Virus record (IMG/VR): IMGVR_UViG_2537561979_000007
Coordinates: 1 to 27,323 of that record
Length of the DNA stretch: 27,323 bases
Source: a virus
Taxonomy: Duplodnaviria; Heunggongvirae; Uroviricota; Caudoviricetes
Strand: one strand, 5' to 3'
In this document: positions 9,966 through 26,966 of the stretch, in pieces
Numbering within the stretch: position 1 is the stretch's first letter
Layout of the letters: each line of letters begins with the position of its first letter
Notes under the pieces: generated by a model
Database searches by the model: none
What the model saw: only the letters and a program-made list of their open reading frames with translations
What the model was told of the DNA's origin: nothing
Program-made: the position numbers and the translations under genes

Positions 9966-10288
9966 CGACGTTAACTCAATGCCAGCAGCAGGTGCTGGAT
10001 ATGCTGATTTCTTACCAGAAAGAACGTGGCTTCCCGCCAACCAATCAGGAGGTGGCAACCATGCTGGGATACCGTTCAGTGAATGCAGCGGTGGAGCATC
10101 TTCGCGCACTGGAGAAAAAAGGCGTCATCACGATAAAGCGTGGCGTGGCCCGGGGGATCACGCTTCATACCGCGGTGAAGGACGACGACAGCGAGGCGGT
10201 CGGGATCATCCGCGCACTGCTTGCCGGTGAGGAGAACGCCAGGTTGCGTGCAGTCCACTGGTTACATGAGAGAGGCCTGAAAGTATGA
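9962..10288 (+). CDS. LexA N-terminal DNA-binding-domain homolog lacking the peptidase domain (108 aa)
   Basis: LTQCQQQVLDMLISYQKERGFPPTNQEVATMLGYRSVNAAVEHLRALEKKGVITIKRGVARGITL aligns by eye with the LexA N-terminal winged helix; no Ser/Lys S24 domain follows. Confidence 0.68.
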   Translation: MTTLTQCQQQVLDMLISYQKERGFPPTNQEVATMLGYRSVNAAVEHLRALEKKGVITIKRGVARGITLHTAVKDDDSEAVGIIRALLAGEENARLRAVHWLHERGLKV

Positions 10289-10674
10289 AGCTAATCCTGC
10301 CTTTCCCGCCCAGCGTGAACACGTACTGGCGACACCCCAACAAAGGGGCATTTTCTGGTAAGAGCCTGATAAGCGCGGCGGGGCGAAAATTTCAGAGCGC
10401 GGCGTGCGCAGCAATAGTTGAGCAGTTACGTCGTCTGCCAAAACCAACGTCGGCACCTGCTTCAGTGGAGATCGTGTTGTTTCCTCCAGATAACCGGATC
10501 CGCGATCTGGACAACTATAACAAGGCGCTGTTTGACGCCCTGACCCACGCGGGTGTGTGGGAAGACGACAGACAGGTGAAAAGAATGCTGGTTGAGTGGG
10601 GACCGGTTATCCCGAAAGGGAAGGTCGAGATCACTATCAGTAAGTATGAGAAACCGGCGGGTGCAGCCGCCTGA
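10285..10674 (+). CDS. rusA: Holliday-junction resolvase RusA (129 aa)
   Basis: RusA signature LPFPPSVNTYWRH ... RDLDNYNKALFDALTHAGVWEDD. Confidence 0.85.
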   Translation: MKLILPFPPSVNTYWRHPNKGAFSGKSLISAAGRKFQSAACAAIVEQLRRLPKPTSAPASVEIVLFPPDNRIRDLDNYNKALFDALTHAGVWEDDRQVKRMLVEWGPVIPKGKVEITISKYEKPAGAAA

Positions 10675-10693
10675 TTAAGAGGAGAAACGAAGT

Positions 10694-11491
10694 ATGAATA
10701 ATCTGATGGTCATTGATGGTATTGAAGTTCGTCGTGATGCTTATGGGCGTTACAGCCTGAACGATCTGCACAGGGCTGCCGGTTCTCTGGATAAGCATAA
10801 GCCTGCATTCTGGCTCCGCAATGAGCAAACTGAACGTTTAATAAGCGAGTTGCAGATTTGCAACTCGGTCAATATAGAGCCAGTTAACGTTATTCGTGGC
10901 GGAAATAACCAGGGGACGTATGTCTGCAAAGAACTGGTGTATGCCTATGCAATGTGGATCAGCCCGTCATTCCATCTGAAGGTGATCCGTATTTTCGATA
11001 TGGTAACCAGCACACCGGAAAAATTATCCGGGCAGGCTGCAGACAAGATGCAGGCTGGCGTGATCCTGCTGGACTTTATGCGCCGGGAATTAAACCTGTC
11101 TAACTCATCAGTGCTTGGAGCCTGTCAGAAGCTTCAGGAGGCTGTTGGCTTACCGAATCTGGCACCGCGCTATGCCATTGATGCTCCTGCTGACGCGCCT
11201 GATGGCTCAAGTCGCCCCACGCTGTCGCTGAGTGCACTGCTGAAACAGTATGGTATCCGCCTGACGGCTAATCAGGCATATCACCAGATGGCGAAGCTGG
11301 GGATCGTTGAACAACGTGAACGATACAGCCGTACCGCGATTAATAACATCAAAAAATTCTGGTCGCTGACGGCGAAAGGCTGCATGTTCGGCAAGAACAT
11401 CACCAGTCCGGCAAATCCGCGCGAGACGCAGCCACACTTCTTCGAATCCCGATTCCCTGAGCTGTTAAAGCTGCTCGATACCGTTCATTGA
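10694..11491 (+). CDS. KilA-N domain protein (265 aa)
   Basis: AGGAG SD; N-terminal KilA-N-like region (DLHRAAGSLDKHKPAFWLRNEQT...GTYVCKELVYAYAMWISPSFHLKVIRIFD). Confidence 0.75.
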   Translation: MNNLMVIDGIEVRRDAYGRYSLNDLHRAAGSLDKHKPAFWLRNEQTERLISELQICNSVNIEPVNVIRGGNNQGTYVCKELVYAYAMWISPSFHLKVIRIFDMVTSTPEKLSGQAADKMQAGVILLDFMRRELNLSNSSVLGACQKLQEAVGLPNLAPRYAIDAPADAPDGSSRPTLSLSALLKQYGIRLTANQAYHQMAKLGIVEQRERYSRTAINNIKKFWSLTAKGCMFGKNITSPANPRETQPHFFESRFPELLKLLDTVH

Positions 11492-11492
11492 G

Positions 11493-12488
11493 GTGACCGT
11501 GAGAGCACTACTGACCCCTGAAATTGCCCCGCGTATGGGGATCGTATTGTTCAGGCCTGGTTCAGAGCTGATGCCCTTGTTTATGCAGGGGCGTGTCCTG
11601 CTGGAGCCTGAGCCGGAACGTTATTCATCTTTCGCCAGTGGTGCCGTTCCGGCGGCATCACAACCACTGGCGGATGATCCTGCCATTCGGGCCGTGTTCC
11701 GCAATGAGGCAGTGATCCGTCGTGCTGGTGGCGTGGAATGTCTTGAAAGCTGGTTACTTCGTGAAAAAGGCTGCCAGTGGCCTCATTCCGACTGGCACAG
11801 CGAGAACATGACCACAATGCGACACGCGCCGGGCGCAATCCGTCTGTGCTGGCACTGCGATAACCAGCTGCGCGATCAGTTCACGGAACGGCTGGAATCA
11901 ATGGCAACGGATAACTGTGCCCGCTGGGTGTTATCTGTTGTGCGCCGTGATCTCGGTTTTGATGATAGTCACGTTGTGACAATGCCGGAACTGTGCTGGT
12001 GGCTGGTTCGTAATGACCTGGCGGATGCCTTACCGGAAAGTGCAGCCCGTAAGGCACTGAGATTACCGAAGCCTGTTGTGCCGTCTGTCACCCGGGAAAG
12101 TGACCTTGTGCCTTCGGTTCCTGCCACCAGCATCATCCAGGATAAGGCGAAAAAGGTGCTGGCGCTGAAAGTGGATCCGGAGTCGCCGGAGTCTTTTATG
12201 TTACGCCCAAAACGTCGCCGCTGGGTTAATGAAAAGTACACGCGCTGGGTTAAGACACAGCCGTGTGCATGTTGTGGAAAGCCCGCTGATGATCCCCACC
12301 ACCTGATAGGTTACGGTCAGGGTGGAATGGGAACAAAAGCGCATGACCTTTTTGTGTTGCCTTTGTGCAGAAAGCATCACGACGAGCTGCATGCGGATAC
12401 CGTGGCATTTGAAGAGAGGTATGGCTCCCAGCTGGAGCTGATATTTCGTTTTATCGATCGTGCGCTGGCAACTGGCGTGCTGGCCTGA
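11493..12488 (+). CDS. DUF968-type phage protein with C-terminal Cys/His HNH-like motif (331 aa)
   Basis: C-terminal CACCGKPADDPHHL...CRKHHDELH; Nin-region position. Start codon uncertain (GTG at 11493 or 11499). Confidence 0.62.
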   Translation: MTVRALLTPEIAPRMGIVLFRPGSELMPLFMQGRVLLEPEPERYSSFASGAVPAASQPLADDPAIRAVFRNEAVIRRAGGVECLESWLLREKGCQWPHSDWHSENMTTMRHAPGAIRLCWHCDNQLRDQFTERLESMATDNCARWVLSVVRRDLGFDDSHVVTMPELCWWLVRNDLADALPESAARKALRLPKPVVPSVTRESDLVPSVPATSIIQDKAKKVLALKVDPESPESFMLRPKRRRWVNEKYTRWVKTQPCACCGKPADDPHHLIGYGQGGMGTKAHDLFVLPLCRKHHDELHADTVAFEERYGSQLELIFRFIDRALATGVLA

Positions 12489-12505
12489 TTTTGTGGAGAA
12501 AGTTG

Positions 12506-12868
12506 ATGCGTGATATTCAAATGGTTCTGGATCGTTGGGGAGCATGGGCGGCGAGTGATAGTTCAGGAGTAGACTATTCTCCTATAGCTGCTGGGTTTAA
12601 AGGGCTTCTTCCCTATACAAGCAAAACACGTCAGGCTTGTTCAGATAGTGATGCATTAATTATTGAAGGTTGTCTTGCTCTTCTTAAAAAGCGAAAACCG
12701 TACGAGCATTCTTTGATTGTGGCCCATTACCTGTATGGCATCTCGAAAAGAAAGCTTGCAAGAGCTCGCAAAAAAGATGAGAAATTGATACGTATAGAGA
12801 TACAGATGGCTGAAGGGTTTATTGATGGATGCCTTTCAATGCTGGATGTTAAACTTGAAATGGAGTAG
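12506..12868 (+). CDS. Late-gene antiterminator Q, short QuuD-like type (120 aa)
   Basis: MRDIQMVLDRWGAWAAS...IAAGFKGLLP matches my recollection of short Q antiterminators; GGAG 8 nt before ATG 12506; position after the Nin block. Confidence 0.72.
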   Translation: MRDIQMVLDRWGAWAASDSSGVDYSPIAAGFKGLLPYTSKTRQACSDSDALIIEGCLALLKKRKPYEHSLIVAHYLYGISKRKLARARKKDEKLIRIEIQMAEGFIDGCLSMLDVKLEME

Positions 12869-12873
12869 AAAAA

Positions 12874-12893
12874 AGGGCATTTCTGCCCTTTTT
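12874..12893. terminator. Bidirectional intrinsic terminator between Q and the convergent cassette
   Basis: AGGGCA-TTTC-TGCCCT hairpin flanked by AAAAA on one side and TTTTT on the other. Confidence 0.5.
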
Positions 12894-13335
12894 AAATGTG
12901 GGGGAGTATCCAGTTTACTTTTCTCCATGTAAAGGCAAAAGTTATTACTGAAATGATAAGAAGAGATAAAGATTCGATAATTAAAATAAATTCTATTTTT
13001 TCTCCATGTAACAATGTCTTTTCATTGGCAAACATTGCTATCAAAGCAATAACGCATGCCGTAATTAAAGATGCACCTGCGGTTAATAGATTTACAATAA
13101 TAACTTGAAGTATGTTGTTGTTTTTTAATGCTTTTATTATTCCATTTGAGTTTTCGCTAGCAGCACTAAAAATTGATATTGTGGCTAAAATAAAACCAAA
13201 TAAAATACCGGATACAGTTGAAATAACCCCGGAGGCTGTAAGTATGTCAGCATGCCCCATCTGAGGGATATACCTCAGTAGGAACAAGGTGCAAAAAACA
13301 CTTACAATCAGGTTTCTTAAGTATTTCAATAACAT
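12892..13335 (-). CDS. Small integral membrane protein, about four predicted TM helices (147 aa); second gene of the AT-rich cassette
   Basis: Four long hydrophobic stretches; AAGAAGG SD; separated by 3 nt from the upstream gene; visibly AT-rich. Confidence 0.62.
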   Translation of the reverse strand: MLLKYLRNLIVSVFCTLFLLRYIPQMGHADILTASGVISTVSGILFGFILATISIFSAASENSNGIIKALKNNNILQVIIVNLLTAGASLITACVIALIAMFANEKTLLHGEKIEFILIIESLSLLIISVITFAFTWRKVNWILPHI

Positions 13336-13338
13336 ATC

Positions 13339-14279
13339 CTATACCTTCTTTTTGCTGATATCGTATTGCTTAAGGTATTCATTGTTATCAATTTTAGCAG
13401 AAATCATGGCTTGCAGAACATCACTATCAGTGCCATAACCATTAACGGTATATATGTTTTTTTCTGAAATGAGTACCTGATCAAGAAGACTTTGTTCAAC
13501 GGTATTTTTGGGCTGTGTTACTGCCGCTTTTTTTACAATTCCCGGCATTTTTTCAAGGAGTTCTTTAATACCATCCTTAACGAGATCTGATAAATAACCT
13601 TTGACTTTTACTCTCCCTGATGCACGTCCCCTTAGATTTAACTTGAGACGTGTTCCACCCAGCCCTACCATCATATTTACCAGTTCCTTAGAAAATGAAC
13701 TATTTAGCTGGTAATTTGTTGCATCAAAGTTCCTGGGAGCAGCCAGGACAATATCACAACTTCTCAAAGTACTTCCTGTTTCAAGTAGCTCTTTGACGCT
13801 CTCTTTTTTCCAGATGGCTTGGAATGAAAAGTTATTTCCAGGATTACCACTCTGGCTGTAAAGCAGATAAGCTAAATCCGATTCTTTCGGCCCAAGATGA
13901 TTTTGAGTTAATATTAAAATATCACTATCGTAATAATATAAAAAATAGGTTCTTTCGACTATGTATTTTTTATCATCTAGTGGTATGTTGTGCTCATTCC
14001 AGTATTCATCACCAATATAAGGAAGGAGATACTCTTCTCGTGAGCATGACATGTAGCCGAAGAAATATTTAGCTTTTGTATCTTTATTTATAAAAGCTAT
14101 TTTTAACTTTTTATTTCTATAGATGGTATCAAAATGATTATTCGTAACGGTTACGCAAGTATTATACAGATTTTCAATTGCTTGCTTAGCAACTGAATGG
14201 CTGCGGATAGTCCCAGAACTGCTGGTGTAAAAACCAATTTTAAGTTTTTTTGTTTCTTTGATTGCGCAATAGTAGCCAT
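13339..14279 (-). CDS. Hypothetical cytoplasmic protein, first gene of the AT-rich cassette; apparent frameshift at an A7 tract near the 5' end (313 aa if the tract were A8)
   Basis: ATG at 14277-14279 with AAGG SD opens an 11-codon frame that runs into an A7 run (plus-strand T7 at 14245-14251); the 237-aa body (track ORF 13339..14052) is open in the adjacent frame all the way up to that run. Confidence 0.5.
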
Positions 14280-20102: not shown

Positions 20103-21143
20103 ATGGCTACATCGACAGTAATTCCTGAAGACATCAAAACGCTAAAATCCGACGTTAGCAAATTAAAAAACGATCAAGGAAGCTACGCAACAAAATCTTA
20201 TGTAGACAATAAAACAACATGGAATGGTTATTGCAATGTAATCTATGATCAAAAAACATTGCCAACAACTGGAACTATATTCAGCGGTAAGCTGCATTTG
20301 TCAAATAAGACTGGTGAAACGGAAAACGCTTATAGTGACATATATACCAGAAAAAATATTGATGGTACTAAAGATACAATGACGAGGATCGTCACACATA
20401 ACGGGACAAAAGGTATCTTTTGGGACTTTAGTGATCTTTACGGAGGAACTTTAATTTTCCCTGGCACTGCTGGTTATTTGAAAATGGGTAAGTGCCTCAT
20501 GTCCTATGGGGATCGTGTAGATAATGCCCTGATTAAATTTGATTATACAGACACATTACAGATCAAATATGCTAATCACGGGTCGACCATGACATTAAAC
20601 ACACAGGGAACCGCTTATGCTGGTGTTACTGCTAAATTGTGGGGCAACTCTAGCCGTCCGGTTGTTTATGAAGTCGGTGTTGATGGTGGCGCTTATATGT
20701 TCTATGCGCAGAAAAATACCGATAACACCTATATGTTAAGCGTTAATGGTGCATGTCATGCCACCGCATTTAACCAGCATTCCGACCGGGATCTGAAAGA
20801 CAACATTCAGGTGATCAATAATGCAACCGACCGCATCCGTAAAATGAACGGCTATACATACACGCTTAAAGAAAACGGTATGCCCTATGCTGGTGTCATT
20901 GCACAGGAAGCTCTGGAAGCAATCCCAGAAGTTGTAGGTTCCGCAATGAAATATCAGGACGGTGCAAGCGGATCGGAAGGTGAAGAAGGTGAACGTTATT
21001 ACACAGTAGATTATTCTGGTGTTACTGGCTTGCTTGTTCAGGTAGCCAGAGAGTCAGACGACAGAATAACAGCACTGGAAGAAGAAAATGCAGAATTAAA
21101 ACAAAGATTATCTGCAATTGAGGCGACGCTTGCGTCTAAATAA
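20103..21143 (+). CDS. Tail fibre/spike protein with C-terminal peptidase-S74-like intramolecular chaperone domain (346 aa)
   Basis: SDRDLKDNI followed by GVIAQE and a terminal coiled coil (ALEEENAELKQRL), as in self-cleaving fibre chaperone domains; GAGGGAG SD. Confidence 0.72.
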   Translation: MATSTVIPEDIKTLKSDVSKLKNDQGSYATKSYVDNKTTWNGYCNVIYDQKTLPTTGTIFSGKLHLSNKTGETENAYSDIYTRKNIDGTKDTMTRIVTHNGTKGIFWDFSDLYGGTLIFPGTAGYLKMGKCLMSYGDRVDNALIKFDYTDTLQIKYANHGSTMTLNTQGTAYAGVTAKLWGNSSRPVVYEVGVDGGAYMFYAQKNTDNTYMLSVNGACHATAFNQHSDRDLKDNIQVINNATDRIRKMNGYTYTLKENGMPYAGVIAQEALEAIPEVVGSAMKYQDGASGSEGEEGERYYTVDYSGVTGLLVQVARESDDRITALEEENAELKQRLSAIEATLASK

Positions 21144-22024: not shown

Positions 22025-22819
22025 TTATAGTAAAGATGATATGCCAGCAAGAAATGGAGTAAATACTGTAATGTGTGCAGATACATTATTAATAAAGTCC
22101 TTATATGCTTCTTTAAAACAGCCGCTTTGGTGACTGGCTGCCAGTGCCTGTACATTATCTATAAGGTGTGATTCTGTCGCGCCATCAAAGTTTTTCGATT
22201 TTATTGCCTCAATCATTTCATTAAATATTGTGGGCTCATTATAATTTGTCGTAGTAGTTGCCGTAGCACCTGAAGAATGTATATTGATACTAGAACCGGA
22301 AATTCCACTGACATGAATATTAGCTTCTTGTTTCATAAGAGGTAAACCATTCTCCATCTTGTATAGGTCACTATCTTGTAGCATCTGCAATGTGATACGT
22401 ACTGCTGCTAATAGTTGTTCTTGCTTTTTGAATAAGGAACACATCTGTTCTACAGACCAAAGCTGAACTGCATTTTCTTCGCATGTTTTTTTAGCTATAT
22501 TTGGCACTTCCGAATCATAATTACCATAAACCCAAGTGTCCTTGAATCTTTCGATAATAGCTGTCAACGTTGGAAATTTACTGAAATCACTATTAATGGA
22601 TAGTAACTCATCAGACATATAAAGTGCCATATCTCTGCCTTCCGCATATACTGCTTCCACTTTATTCCGTGTTGCAAATGGTATTCTTGAAATAAAACGA
22701 AAATCCTCTTCATTTTTTAAATGGACCCAGTCTTTATCAAAACGGCTAAATTCGTACCCTATCGATAACAGTCTACTTATATATTGGGCTACTGATTCCA
22801 AATCTTTTCTTATGTCCAA
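22025..22819 (-). CDS. Hypothetical protein, AT-rich orphan (264 aa from TTG 22819; 271 aa from TTG 22840)
   Basis: Long ORF with no in-frame ATG for about 70 codons; AGGAGT lies 6 nt before TTG at 22817-22819; terminator-like palindrome downstream; no family recognised. Confidence 0.55.
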   Translation of the reverse strand: MDIRKDLESVAQYISRLLSIGYEFSRFDKDWVHLKNEEDFRFISRIPFATRNKVEAVYAEGRDMALYMSDELLSINSDFSKFPTLTAIIERFKDTWVYGNYDSEVPNIAKKTCEENAVQLWSVEQMCSLFKKQEQLLAAVRITLQMLQDSDLYKMENGLPLMKQEANIHVSGISGSSINIHSSGATATTTTNYNEPTIFNEMIEAIKSKNFDGATESHLIDNVQALAASHQSGCFKEAYKDFINNVSAHITVFTPFLAGISSLL

Positions 22820-23289
22820 AGTATTACTCCTGCTTGTCAACCGAATCTGTCGGTTTTCTTACAAATGGCTTGTCTTTAAAGTTCTGATTAAAAAGACGCT
22901 AACCAATACTTAATAATACATGAAAAAAAAGCGCATAAGCTGGCTTTTTTATCAATCGGGAACTGCGGCCCCTTTGCGTATCCTTTTTTGTTTCTTCACC
23001 GTCTGGTCGGTGTTCTGCTGAGACTGCTAATTTCCTGTTTTTGCTAGTGCTGTCTTGGCACTGTCCATCGTGATTGGTGGACTGGTGAAGTTGAAACCGC
23101 AGACACGTCGTATGCAAGAACGTGCTGCGGCTGGCTGGTGAACTTCCGATAGTGCGAGTATTGAATGATTTACAGCCGTTATTGATTTTACATATTTTTT
23201 GTATGAAAGGATTAGCGCCTCCTCCCACCGATCCTCCATGACTTTACGCCACTGTCTCTAGGACTGCTATGTGCTAGGAACGGACATAG

Positions 23290-23652
23290 AAAACACGATG
23301 TTATAAGATTAGGTGCATCTATCCGATAGTATTCATTGGACGTGATGATCGTACTAAGCCGATCTCAAAGGAAAGCATTAATCAGGTAATTGAGCTATTA
23401 GGATAAAAAGGAAGGCTGACGGGGCATGGTTTTCGTCACACAATGAGTACCATTCTGCACGAAGAAGGATTCAACTCTGCATGTTTCGAAACACAACTTG
23501 CACATGTGGATAAGAACGCTATTCTCGGGGCTTACAATCATGCACAGTATTTGGAAGGGAGACAACAGATGATGCAGTGGTATAGTGAATACATAGATAG
23601 CTTGTCTAGAAATAGACTTCCGCAATTTTTTCTTCAAAAAAAGGCAGTATGA
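23290..23652 (+). pseudogene. C-terminal remnant of a P4-type tyrosine integrase (5'-truncated, in-frame stop at 23404)
   Basis: ...GRDDRTKPISKESINQVIELLG*KGRLTGHGFRHTMSTILHEEGFNSACFETQLAHVDKNAILGAYNHAQYLEGRQQMMQWY matches the C-terminal catalytic region of P4-type integrases by recollection (HGFRHT box, AYNHA Tyr box); about 280 N-terminal residues absent. Confidence 0.65.
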
Positions 23653-23714
23653 ACAATAAATCTAGTTGATGCATACAAAGGTTTATTGTCGATAGCAAGA
23701 GGAGCGTCAAAATC

Positions 23715-26700
23715 ATGAATGTACAGAAAACCAAATTTTCATCTAAAGAATTTCTAAGGCGCCGTCGCCCTGAAAAATTTTCTGATTCAACAATCAGAGA
23801 GACTGGTACTTTAGACAGAGTTGTACTGGAACACTTCCTCTCTACGCTAAATACAAGAAATCAAGAACTACAATTCGAAGATTTTGCAAAAAAAATATGT
23901 GAAAAAATAATTTGCCCTAATCTCCTTGAACAAACTGGCCCTGTAGCAGGGGGGGATGGTAAAACTGACACACAAACATTCCCTGTTTCAGAACAGAATA
24001 AGCTTCTTTGGTTCGAAGGCGTTAATGAAGCATCAAATAGAGAACGCTGGGCCTTTGCGGTAAGTACACGTAAAGACTGGAAGAAAAAATGCCATGAAGA
24101 TGTACTTAAGATAAAAGAAACAGAACGTGGGTATGCTAAAGTATTTTGCGTAACGAACCAGTCTGCAAAGTCCAATATTCGTTCAGAGGTTGAGGATACA
24201 CTAAAAACAAAAACTGGAATAGATGTTCGTATATTAGATATTAATTGGCTATTAGATCAAATTTACAAAAATAATTTTGAGCAATTGGCCATTGATTCAT
24301 TGTCAGTTCCAACGCAATATAAAAGAGAAGTTATTTTTGGAGAAAATGATTATAAAAAGCATAAAAAATATGAAGAGTTAACCGAGTATATTAGAGAGAA
24401 AATAAACCCTGCTGAAATTTCATATGAACAGGTGGATATTTTTTTAGAAATTGCAGAGTTAAGCGCTGAACTTGAGAAACCACTAATTGAAACACAAGGT
24501 CTATTTGAAAGAGCTATAAAAATATCAAAGAAATTCGGGACTAATCAACAATTGCTAGATGCGTATTATCAATATGCCTGGAAGTCTCATTTTTGGATGG
24601 AAGATTTTAATCTCTTTGAAGAAAATCTTCAATTTGCATATGAAAGTATTGCATCATCAACTAATTCCTCAAAATGGGAGAAAGTTTTAAATTTAGTAAC
24701 CGTTCATAAAAGTTATATTAGACTTAACAACGCAACATCTACAATCGATATTGAGAATATTGAACGTAACATGCTCGCTAAACTAGATGAGATAGCTGAC
24801 GATGAATCACGTCCCAGTAATGCACTCACAGCGAGAACTCACAAAGCTATTTATAAATTGACAACGTTTTCAGATGTAGAAGATGCTTCGGTTGTATTTG
24901 AAGAGTTACATGAAATTTTTAAAAATAGTGGAAATTTAATAGGCTATTCCTTTGAGAAGAACTTCCAACTTTTGAACGAACTGGATGACATTTTTTTCGA
25001 GGTAGATGCATATGAAAATTTATTAGACTATATGACTGAGCAATCTGCTGTTAGAGGTGGTGAAGTTAAAGGGGCATTATTAAATCTACGAAGAGGTATA
25101 AAGAGGATTCAAAATGGTCACCCTTATCAGGCAATCAAGTATTTAGGAAAATCATTTATACCACTCTATAAAGAGGAATCACGAGATAAATTTATATTAG
25201 CATTAAAAGCTATTGCTTATGCTTACGAATCCATTGGGTTGCTATGGAGTTCACGTTCATGCTTGCTTCTATCCGCTTCTTTGATTACAGATAACTACTG
25301 GAAGTATGATGAGATATCATTAAAGCAGGCTGAGATTTATTATAGTTTATGCCTGGCAGAAATAAAACTAGGGAAATTAGCACATGCTCTTTTATGGTAT
25401 GAACTGTTTTTAATAATTAACCAAAATATCAGTGATAGCTCGTTCGGCGATAAAGAAAATCAGCAAGTTGATTTTTACATAAGTCAACTCATTTTGAACA
25501 CTGACCTAAATGGAATAAATCGACAGAGTAATATTCCCGATGAACTCGATAGATTAGGTCTTTTTGTATCATCTGGATGTCTTAAATATGCTTTAGGTTA
25601 TATTGAAAATTTTGAACATGAGTACGAAGTTACTGCCGATAAAGATCATAATGATTTCTTGCAAAAAATACGTGACTTTGATGCTGGATTCAATAGTAAA
25701 GGCATAAAAGATAACTATGATAAACGAGGAATATATACATCTTTTATTTTTGGATGCACTATAGAAATTAACTTTCCGAATCGGTCACCATTTATAGAGT
25801 TTTCAACTAGTATCTTAGCGCTTTTAGAGAGTGCTTTTGCAACTTGTACGATTGATAACATCCATCTGAAAGAAGCATTTTTAATTATTGAAGTAATAGC
25901 AGATGATGAAGATGACTTCTCCTTATCACATGAAATAAATAGCAATAATGGAAAACTAAACCTTACTATAAATTGCAATGGTTTTGAAACAAGTGCATTT
26001 AGAGTCGATGTTCAACAAAAAATTACTAATGAATTCAAGAAAATAGTATTTGATCTTCTCCCTGAGTTATTTTTTATAAAAAATACAGAATACATTGAAA
26101 GAATGATATTCGAAGATGCTGCATTTGACAGAGCAATTAGTTTCGGTGCCTGTATCAAAGCTATTGAAAATGTTCTTGGAAATGATATTGATCAACAAAT
26201 TAAGAAAATTTATTCCACCAGTACTGAAAAGAAAACTTACCCTCTTTTAAGAGATAAACCCTGGGATAGTGAATTTCCAAAAGTGTTGGAGATCGAGGAT
26301 GTAAATGTTCCAACACCTGGTAAAGGAATAATGCCTGAAGAGGAACTTAATTCCGAAAATATAACGCATAAAGATTATTCAATACAAAGTCTAATCAAAC
26401 CTCGTCTATGGGATAGAACACGCTGGCAAGGAGTAGGCTTCGCTCAATTAAAATCGTGTTATCCAGGGTTATATCTATTATTTAAACACCCCGATATAGG
26501 TGAGGATATTTTTAAAGATCTTATATCATCAGTAGGCTTGGTAGATAGTAAAGCCAGATTACGGGTTTGTATTGTCAAGGGTATTTCAGTTAAAAACCCA
26601 AATCATTATAGAGTACTGATATCTGAAAATATGATGACAACGCCATTAACTAAAAGAATGACAATGATCAGTAGAATTAATACGATGACTCCTGATAGTA

Positions 26701-26966
26701 ACGTCAATTTAGAAAGATTTCTTGCTGCGTATCAGGCCTGTGGAAAATTCTATCTTGGATGTGATGCGATGTTAAAAAATATTGTTCCTGAGCATCCACA
26801 AAGAGATAGTTTAGGGATAGAAATGAGTACGTTAGATGTTAGGTGGGCTTGGGAAATTGGGTTAAATGATGTTGATTGTATTGGGGTTAATTTAAAAGAA
26901 GATGACCCCTATATTCCTAGTGATGTAGCTGAGATCCCATTATTGCAATTGATAAACAGTAAATAA
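23715..26966 (+). CDS. Large orphan protein (1083 aa): N-terminal Mrr-like PD-(D/E)xK nuclease-type motifs plus about 900-aa predominantly helical C-terminal region
   Basis: Uninterrupted 3.25-kb ORF, GAGGAG upstream, visibly AT-rich; N-terminal GGDGKTD ... AFAVSTRK ... KVFCVTNQS resembles the Mrr catalytic pattern (GDGGIDG ... QCK ... GVFITTSSF); no Walker A/B motifs. Confidence 0.8.
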   Translation: MNVQKTKFSSKEFLRRRRPEKFSDSTIRETGTLDRVVLEHFLSTLNTRNQELQFEDFAKKICEKIICPNLLEQTGPVAGGDGKTDTQTFPVSEQNKLLWFEGVNEASNRERWAFAVSTRKDWKKKCHEDVLKIKETERGYAKVFCVTNQSAKSNIRSEVEDTLKTKTGIDVRILDINWLLDQIYKNNFEQLAIDSLSVPTQYKREVIFGENDYKKHKKYEELTEYIREKINPAEISYEQVDIFLEIAELSAELEKPLIETQGLFERAIKISKKFGTNQQLLDAYYQYAWKSHFWMEDFNLFEENLQFAYESIASSTNSSKWEKVLNLVTVHKSYIRLNNATSTIDIENIERNMLAKLDEIADDESRPSNALTARTHKAIYKLTTFSDVEDASVVFEELHEIFKNSGNLIGYSFEKNFQLLNELDDIFFEVDAYENLLDYMTEQSAVRGGEVKGALLNLRRGIKRIQNGHPYQAIKYLGKSFIPLYKEESRDKFILALKAIAYAYESIGLLWSSRSCLLLSASLITDNYWKYDEISLKQAEIYYSLCLAEIKLGKLAHALLWYELFLIINQNISDSSFGDKENQQVDFYISQLILNTDLNGINRQSNIPDELDRLGLFVSSGCLKYALGYIENFEHEYEVTADKDHNDFLQKIRDFDAGFNSKGIKDNYDKRGIYTSFIFGCTIEINFPNRSPFIEFSTSILALLESAFATCTIDNIHLKEAFLIIEVIADDEDDFSLSHEINSNNGKLNLTINCNGFETSAFRVDVQQKITNEFKKIVFDLLPELFFIKNTEYIERMIFEDAAFDRAISFGACIKAIENVLGNDIDQQIKKIYSTSTEKKTYPLLRDKPWDSEFPKVLEIEDVNVPTPGKGIMPEEELNSENITHKDYSIQSLIKPRLWDRTRWQGVGFAQLKSCYPGLYLLFKHPDIGEDIFKDLISSVGLVDSKARLRVCIVKGISVKNPNHYRVLISENMMTTPLTKRMTMISRINTMTPDSNVNLERFLAAYQACGKFYLGCDAMLKNIVPEHPQRDSLGIEMSTLDVRWAWEIGLNDVDCIGVNLKEDDPYIPSDVAEIPLLQLINSK

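Follow-up and report, generated by a model that had tools for sequence, protein, structure and literature searches.

A candidate single-gene immune protein of an Escherichia coli integrase island, combining a predicted Mrr-like nuclease fold with a putative tetratricopeptide-type sensor

Introduction

What is the role of a large, solitary gene that follows the remnant of an integrase beside a prophage? This question is raised by a DNA stretch of 27,323 nucleotides (IMG/VR virus record IMGVR_UViG_2537561979_000007, positions 1 to 27,323; Caudoviricetes), which in its full length is designated the window below and which carries near its right end the gene studied here, termed the target gene. 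An earlier note, made from the sequence alone, had described this gene as an orphan whose product has an Mrr-like nuclease-type N-terminus and a large helical remainder, and had put it forward as a candidate single-protein defense system. In this article, we present an in silico analysis of the gene, of the protein family to which it belongs and of the genomic surroundings of its homologs. With a confidence somewhat above even, we favor the interpretation that the protein is a stand-alone immune sensor-effector directed against phages or invading DNA, which works independently of a nucleoside triphosphatase (NTPase) and whose gene is the only cargo that a small integrase island carries.

The target gene and its protein family

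The target open reading frame (ORF) is a genuine gene. At its nucleotide composition, a stop codon is expected every ~12 codons and the probability of 1083 stop-free codons by chance is ~1e-40; the remaining five frames of the same stretch contain 43 to 151 stops. Its GC content is 0.333, compared to ~0.50 in the neighboring prophage body, so that the uninterrupted, AT-rich reading frame of the earlier note is confirmed. The encoded protein is exactly identical to EGB67664.1/OSL80499.1 of E. coli TA008/TA007, and near-identical copies in further E. coli strains are combined in RefSeq as WP_039268304.1; all of these entries are labeled "hypothetical protein". The coordinates of the gene and of the features discussed in this article are listed in Table 1.

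Table 1 Location of the target gene, its predicted parts and the adjoining features within the window
Feature	Position	Strand	Remarks
Left edge of segment ~99.5% identical in other E. coli genomes	~23097		Junction with the prophage of the window
Pseudogene stub of the island's tyrosine integrase	23320..23652	+	C-terminal end only; mapped from the RefSeq annotation of L001
Shine-Dalgarno sequence AGGAG	23700..23704	+	10 nt 5' of the ATG; read directly from the sequence
Target ORF	23715..26966	+	ATG to stop, 1083 amino acids (aa)
N-terminal domain, aa 1-207	23715..24335	+	Predicted Mrr-like PD-(D/E)xK fold, α/β; most conserved part of the family
Motif G79-G-D81-G-K83-T-D85	23949..23969	+	Putative metal-binding acidic residues; within a loop of low model confidence
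Motif S117-T-R-K-D-W-K-K-K125-C-H-E-D129	24063..24101	+	S117, K125 and D129 invariant
Helical-repeat region, tetratricopeptide repeat (TPR)-like, aa 208-660	24336..25694	+	Without β-strands in the AlphaFold2 model; putative scaffold or sensor
C-terminal α/β region, aa 661-1083	25695..26963	+	Fastest-evolving part; putative target-recognition module

The gene is not an orphan, as had been assumed. A search of 5.8 billion protein clusters yielded at least 760 homologous 90%-identity clusters over the whole protein. The 120 homologs listed stem from Enterobacterales, Aeromonas, Vibrionaceae, Shewanella, Pseudoalteromonas, Halomonas, Acinetobacter and others, are almost all 1070 to 1100 aa long and are named either "hypothetical" or generically "tetratricopeptide repeat protein"; none of them carries a precomputed Pfam domain. 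An exhaustive HMMER search with a profile of the N-terminal domain retrieved 1066 representatives of 50%-identity clusters (441 at E ≤ 1e-30), and named examples of the family extend to Pseudomonas and Verrucomicrobiota. In the top 150 matches of this search, the domain is located at the extreme N-terminus of proteins of ~1060 to 1140 aa, apart from shorter entries that are probably fragments. The family is thus large, and its architecture is fixed. Individual genomes rarely contain the gene, which was present in 25 of 185,579 species-representative genomes; among the 5426 complete genomes of E. coli, only 23 have it in full length.

The other part of the earlier description, that the protein matches no family that can be named, was borne out. 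Searches of the target protein against Pfam (2025), NCBIfam (2026), PADLOC (PADLOC-DB v2.0.0 of 2023) and the PHROGs gave no significant match, the PADLOC-DB scan returning zero families at E ≤ 1, and a confident assignment to a known non-defense family was likewise not obtained in these four collections. Neither the protein nor the family profile had a match among the PDB sequences at E ≤ 10. A Pfam scan of 28 N-terminal domains and 45 divergent full-length members revealed nothing recurrent. In the literature library that was searched, no paper names the family accessions or an equivalent nuclease-TPR architecture, and searches for reports on the thrW hotspot yielded nothing on the family either. 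As judged from these sequence comparisons, the target protein represents a large, widespread and unnamed protein family.

Predicted structure and domain organization

An AlphaFold2 model of the full protein, calculated from a 45-sequence alignment, has a mean predicted local distance difference test score (pLDDT) of 84.9 and a predicted template modeling score of 0.72 and shows three parts (Table 1). The structures that best matched the N-terminal domain were those of AspBHI and MspJI, two modification-dependent enzymes, each with its catalytic domain, and of AF1548, an Mrr_cat protein. In the model, the domain has an α-β-β-β-α-β core, which superimposes on those of the Mrr, MspJI and FokI catalytic domains. 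Searches with the full model returned TPR matches only. The AlphaFold2 domain plan, the TPR matches and the nuclease-fold matches together indicate an N-terminal effector and a C-terminal TPR-type sensor within one polypeptide. The notion that the remaining ~900 residues are helical therefore requires revision: the model supports it for residues 208-660, which form helical repeats, but not for residues 661-1083, which are predicted to be mixed α/β.

The three parts differ in their rate of evolution. When the near-identical Kluyvera copy is left aside, the ratio of nonsynonymous to synonymous substitution rates (dN/dS) is 0.08-0.09 for the N-terminal domain, 0.08-0.10 for the helical region and 0.16-0.24 for the C-terminal region. 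The roughly twofold faster evolution of the latter fits a conserved effector that is coupled to a recognition module under diversifying pressure. Within the C-terminal region, residues G680, E705, R806, W899, W904, Y965 and R987 are invariant, and its content of basic residues (K+R 47) is lower than that of acidic residues (D+E 61).

The structural matches of the N-terminal domain suggest an alternative function, namely Type IV modification-dependent restriction, in which this domain would cut DNA whose foreign base modification is recognized by the C-terminal region, the TPR array serving as spacer or oligomerization scaffold. The catalytic domains of AspBHI and MspJI and AF1548 being the best matches is in line with this proposal, Mrr_cat is the sole nuclease family of Pfam that appears at all, even if weakly, and the invariant residues W899, W904, Y965 and R987 could line a pocket for a flipped base; furthermore, the gene is a single-gene unit found in restriction and defense islands. 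Several observations, however, speak against it. An SRA, Mrr_N/winged-helix, EVE/PUA or other DNA-reader family was found by the Pfam scan in 0 of the 45 divergent members, the domain order is opposite to that of Mrr, MspJI and AspBHI, in which the reader is N-terminal and the nuclease C-terminal, and the C-terminal region is, as stated, more acidic than basic. Moreover, an array of 450 residues of TPR type is typical of protein-protein recognition, and to our knowledge no Type IV enzyme contains one. We consider this alternative unlikely.

A domain for nucleotide hydrolysis is missing. Scans against Pfam, NCBIfam and PADLOC revealed no P-loop, NACHT, AAA, helicase or methyltransferase family on the target protein, the same was true for Pfam on the 45 divergent members, and the AlphaFold2 model contains no β-strands in residues 208-660. 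The earlier statement that Walker A/B, helicase and methyltransferase motifs are absent is thus correct at the level of domains; literally taken it is not, as the protein contains the Walker-A string AIKYLGKS (aa 473-480, positions 25131-25154). This string was considered as a hidden P-loop and rejected. It is located within a predicted helix and is present in 13 of 99 members, whereas most members have arginine in place of the lysine, and because it is helical and rare in the family it is regarded as a chance match.

The putative active site

Conservation was counted in 99 members of the family that are 25-56% identical to the target protein. D81, D85, S117, K125 and D129 are invariant in 99/99, K83 is found in 97/99 and E55 in 91/99. 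The motif strings that the earlier note had picked out are all present, GGDGKTD corresponding to residues 79-85, AFAVSTRK to residues 113-120 and KVFCVTNQS to residues 142-150. By-eye comparison with Mrr shows that GDGKTD has the same spacing as GDGGID of EcoKMrr, that F54-E55 matches the FE of Mrr helix 1 and that the family consensus FAFSAKKxW resembles VYVQAKRW of Mrr.

When compared to the catalytic signature D...(D/E/Q)xK, the target domain has the invariant aspartates D81 and D85, spaced as in Mrr, whereas the residue on strand β3 is the invariant S117 and the lysine two positions further is variable. The counterpart of the lysine of the Mrr QxK motif is position 119, which is R119 in the target protein, Q, R or N throughout its subfamily and K in 69 of the 99 divergent members. 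As this lysine is not conserved, the domain would either have to cut by means of a rearranged site or might lack catalytic activity. For the first case, the conservation pattern suggests a solution: K125 and D129 on the next helix may substitute for the canonical lysine. By analogy, the domain probably has a spatially permuted PD-(D/E)xK site in which S117 is contributed by β3 and K125 and D129 come from the following helix. Enzymes of the Cfr10I/NgoMIV type also have a serine at the β3 position, and a helix supplies the missing residue. If true, the arrangement S117...K125...D129 would constitute a novel variant of the active site in the Mrr-like branch.

The most conserved stretch of the family, TGPxGGGDxKxDxETxPV (aa 74-97, positions 23934-24005), is at the same time the lowest-confidence segment in both AlphaFold models (pLDDT <50-63). 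It is probably a glycine-rich, mobile active-site loop which AlphaFold2 cannot place.

The second case has to be weighed too. The nuclease-like fold could have become inactive and serve as the DNA- or ligand-binding module of a TPR adaptor protein, a scaffold or regulator unrelated to immunity. Such a role would agree with the absence of the canonical (D/E/Q)xK lysine in the target subfamily and of any significant sequence match to an active nuclease family, and also with the location of some homologs among housekeeping genes. It is difficult to reconcile, on the other hand, with the absolute invariance of five residues (D81, D85, S117, K125 and D129) among members that are only 25-40% identical, which is expected for an active site, and the patchy horizontal distribution and the mobile-element and defense-island context argue against a housekeeping role. 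We therefore judge a non-catalytic protein to be very improbable.

The integrase island, horizontal transfer and selection

The target gene is shared with other E. coli genomes as part of a segment that starts at ~23097 and consists of an integrase pseudogene stub and the target gene. An integrase remnant directly upstream had been noticed before, and two observations corroborate it. The ORF at 23443..23652 (69 aa) is 71% identical to 59 residues (349-407) of an intact Kluyvera integrase of 411 aa, and in other strains the upstream stub carries the RefSeq annotation of a tyrosine recombinase pseudogene. An intact integrase of 402-411 aa is encoded immediately upstream of the gene, on the same strand, in Kluyvera, Rahnella, Serratia and Photorhabdus. 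From the similarity of the stub to the Kluyvera enzyme and from the intact upstream integrases in these genera it follows that the remnant is a decayed form of the integrase with which the gene makes up a minimal island.

That the gene was acquired horizontally, as the earlier note had proposed, is well supported. The GC content of 0.33 vs 0.50 and the presence in only 25 of the 185,579 species have already been mentioned. In addition, the protein sequences of distant carriers are very similar to that of E. coli, with identities of 97-98% for Kluyvera, 94% for Photorhabdus, 90% for Rahnella, 83% for Serratia and still 80% for the betaproteobacterium Snodgrassella alvi, and the synonymous divergence (dS) from the E. 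coli copy is as low as 0.07 for Kluyvera, 0.23 for Photorhabdus and 0.34 for Rahnella. The low dS across genera and the low GC content indicate recent horizontal transfer. In pairwise comparison to five orthologs, the dN/dS of the whole ORF is 0.11-0.16. The protein is under purifying selection and functional in its full length.

Most of the 23 E. coli carriers have the gene in the thrW/proA region. In the NWU strains, the same module of stub, gene and second integrase occurs at a different site near mscS. On the 3' side of the gene, other genomes contain either an intact integrase-DUF6387-helix-turn-helix...TOPRIM/DUF927-primase island or a truncated primase of the P4 family. Some copies of the gene are disrupted. 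It is split by the insertion sequence (IS) IS903B in E. coli TF5 (L041) and frameshifted in the NWU strains (L011, NWU_3), and split or truncated copies, an indication of sporadic inactivation, are found at loci L011, L022, L030, L035 and L036; in two further IS-carrying strains, the IS lies outside of the ORF. In most of the 23 E. coli genomes, the gene is intact after decay of the integrase.

No partner gene accompanies the target gene. When the ORFs flanking it in 28 non-redundant loci were clustered, no recurrent family was found except tyrosine integrases (11 loci). A serine/threonine kinase was considered as a conserved partner and rejected, as the kinase adjoining the gene in Citrobacter and that in Microbulbifer are not orthologs. 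The target gene is a single-gene unit.

These data bear on a further alternative, according to which the protein is a weapon or stabilization factor of the island, acting in competition between elements (helper or competing phages, rival islands at the same attachment site) or as an addiction toxin, rather than in primary host immunity. In four genera (Kluyvera, Rahnella, Serratia and Photorhabdus), the gene follows its own integrase as the first or sole cargo, it is located at the edge of satellite-like integrase-DUF6387-AlpA-DUF927/P4-primase islands, inside Tn7 and next to Tn3, and its sporadic inactivation by IS903B or frameshift would be expected of a costly gene. The clustering of flanking ORFs in the 28 loci, however, yielded no conserved antitoxin or immunity partner. 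The persistence of the intact gene in most of the 23 E. coli genomes after the integrase had decayed speaks against a role tied to the island, and the purifying selection suggests a benefit for the host that is independent of island mobility. This alternative also overlaps mechanistically with defense. We rate it as distinctly improbable.

Genomic neighborhoods of homologs

The genes next to homologs in unrelated genomes provide an argument for a function in immunity. In Aliivibrio sp. (L003; MAJS01000006.1, 1-15000), the homolog is located between TniQ/Csy2/Csy3 and TniB/TnsB/TnsA, i.e. in the cargo region of a Tn7-like type I-F CRISPR-associated transposon, which also holds a VspR-like regulator and a ResIII helicase gene. 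In Vibrio parahaemolyticus, the homolog lies between SIR2-HerA and AbiH, in Rahnella and Serratia directly beside a complete Gabija system (GajA, GajB), and in Citrobacter after a complete Shango system (SngABC). Further homologs were found near the type I restriction-modification subunit HsdR (Halomonas), near a Mokosh-like helicase (Pseudocolwellia), near GAP1-N1/EAD1 and a PNP effector (Psychrobacter), next to a Tn3 transposase (Marinicella) and at the edge of integrase-DUF6387-AlpA-DUF927-primase islands (Pectobacterium, Microbulbifer, E. coli). The family thus recurs in proximity to known defense systems and as cargo of mobile elements in unrelated genomes. Judged locus by locus, this association is strong.

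A phage-encoded origin of the family was considered as well and rejected. The phage database contained a single match, the unverified contig MT836254.1 (L039, "Bacteriophage sp."), and among the PHROGs there was none. The genes of this contig encode DUF4099/DUF3945, MutS_I and glucosaminidase proteins, and 3' of the homolog there are genes for a trypsin-like protease and DUF1848 and a NERD/UvrD-helicase cluster. The entry looks like an integrative or conjugative element with defense cargo rather than a phage.

Proposed function

According to the interpretation we prefer, that of an NTPase-independent immune sensor-effector, the repeat array and the C-terminal region would keep the nuclease inactive in the resting state. 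Upon infection, a ligand derived from the phage, most likely one of its conserved proteins, would bind to the sensor formed by the TPR array and the C-terminal region and relieve this inhibition. The release would probably involve an oligomerization that pairs the nuclease domains, since domains of the FokI/Mrr type must dimerize to cut. The activated nuclease would then degrade DNA, and the infection would be aborted.

Several observations weigh against this interpretation. The counterpart of the Mrr QxK lysine is not conserved, and the motif at aa 74-97 is modeled at a pLDDT <50, so that the geometry of the active site is putative. At the sequence level, the relationship of the N-terminal domain to known nucleases is not significant: the target protein itself has no hit to Pfam Mrr_cat (PF04471) and hence none above its gathering threshold, the family matches only 2 of the 28 N-terminal domains (best E 0.027), and hhalign comparisons of the domain profile with EcoKMrr and with an Mrr profile gave a probability of 0.3%, the Mrr profile being shallow and of low power because the homolog search for Mrr provided only sequences that are at least 74% identical. 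The Mrr/PD-(D/E)xK N-terminus of the earlier note is consequently retained as a structurally matched nuclease fold, but not as a homology detectable by sequence, and without the canonical lysine; on the basis of the model, the protein belongs to the Mrr-like branch of the PD-(D/E)xK superfamily by structure only. Furthermore, PADLOC-DB is from 2023, and a newer catalogue might already include the family. Some homologs are located between housekeeping genes without defense neighbors (Snodgrassella, Ferrimonas), and the defense role is one that we infer from genomic association. The proposal of a single-gene antiphage protein accordingly stands with regard to a solitary and mobile gene beside named defense systems, while the defense function itself is deduced from this context.

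The Snodgrassella alvi copy (L016, positions 10001-13264), 80% identical to the target protein, is situated between dnaX and a threonine dehydratase gene, and none of the ORFs called around it, five per side, encodes an integrase.

A more far-reaching version of the sensor-effector interpretation is that the family is a widespread, hitherto unrecognized class of NTPase-independent bacterial pattern-recognition receptors, in which the TPR array and a C-terminal sensor of novel fold would bind a conserved phage protein directly and switch on an Mrr-like nuclease with a permuted site, in short "Avs without the STAND engine". We regard this version as possible, though doubtful. If it were true, ATP-driven oligomerization would be dispensable for TPR-based sensing of phages.

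Other features of the window

At the start of the window lies proA, which is followed by the gene for tRNA-Thr(CGT), the integrase gene of a prophage and a prophage of lambdoid type with tail-fiber genes at its end. The tRNA gene, thrW (1369-1444), is directly followed by the minus-strand integrase gene (1459-2622), which indicates that the prophage is integrated at thrW. A repeat of at least 12 nt of the thrW 3' end, searched for as the attachment-site mark of an island or prophage end, was not found further along the window.

Two adjacent ORFs of the prophage at 12892-14052 (minus strand) have a GC content of ~0.36 and encode proteins of 146 aa (phrog_8552) and 236 aa (DUF6731, phrog_7651); neither has a PADLOC match, and the pair looks like an accessory or moron locus. 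In the tail-fiber region, an ORF of 346 aa (20103-21143, plus strand) ends in a Peptidase_S74 intramolecular chaperone domain of the endosialidase type. Between the tail-fiber genes and the junction at ~23097 lies an ORF of 271 aa (22025-22840, minus strand; GC ~0.36) without Pfam, PHROG or PADLOC match, which the E. coli genomes sharing the target module lack.

Comparison with known systems

If the proposed function is confirmed, a family of more than 1000 clusters, with members in E. coli, Salmonella, Klebsiella, Enterobacter, Vibrio, Pseudomonas and further bacteria, would exchange the label "hypothetical protein" for the name of a single-gene immune system. The control of a restriction-type nuclease by a TPR sensor could then be studied in a compact system, and the family would be relevant for the host range in phage therapy of Enterobacteriaceae and for defense-annotation pipelines, which now miss the family.

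Precedents exist for effector-sensor proteins without NTPase, namely Upx (PMC13601566) and DSR2 (PMC11850899, PMC10981675), and the target protein would be the second or third example, after these two, of sensor-effector immunity without a STAND NTPase. Like Upx, which senses the phage terminase (PMC13601566), it combines in a single polypeptide a PD-(D/E)xK nuclease fold with a large unannotated sensor and lacks a STAND NTPase; in Upx, however, the nuclease is C-terminal and the sensor is β-rich, whereas in the target protein the nuclease is N-terminal, the sensor consists of the TPR array and the α/β region, and there is no PADLOC match. With DSR2 (PMC11850899, PMC10981675), it shares an N-terminal effector, a helical middle part, a C-terminal recognition domain, a size of ~1000 residues, the lack of an NTPase and the organization as a single gene. 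DSR2 differs by its SIR2 NADase effector and its C-terminal solenoid, in place of which the target protein has a nuclease fold and an α/β C-terminus, and the target protein has no SIR2 family hit and no match to DSR2 by sequence or in PADLOC.

Among the Avs (AVAST) proteins, those that have an Mrr-like nuclease at the N-terminus (e.g. Avs4, PDB 8dgf) resemble the target protein functionally, as they also unite an N-terminal effector with a TPR-type sensor. In contrast to the target protein, they contain a central STAND NTPase with Walker A/B motifs; the target protein has neither a P-loop, nor β-strands in residues 208-660, nor a PADLOC match to Avs. The target protein furthermore has an additional α/β C-terminal region of 420 residues, and sequence homology between the two is not detectable. 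Mrr, MspJI and AspBHI (PDB 4oc8, 4f0p; Mrr_cat PF04471, 1y88) have a catalytic domain of the fold predicted for the target protein, and GDGGID of EcoKMrr has the spacing of GDGKTD, but in the target protein S117 replaces Q/E, the motif lysine is variable, the domain order is reversed, a reader domain is not recognizable and a large TPR insert is present. The target protein is not a member of the Avs, Upx or DSR2 families, as sequence profiles gave no assignment to them and an NTPase is structurally missing. In view of Avs, Upx and DSR2, it is not a conceptual surprise; its most unusual aspects are the putative sensing by a TPR array without NTPase and the non-canonical putative active site.

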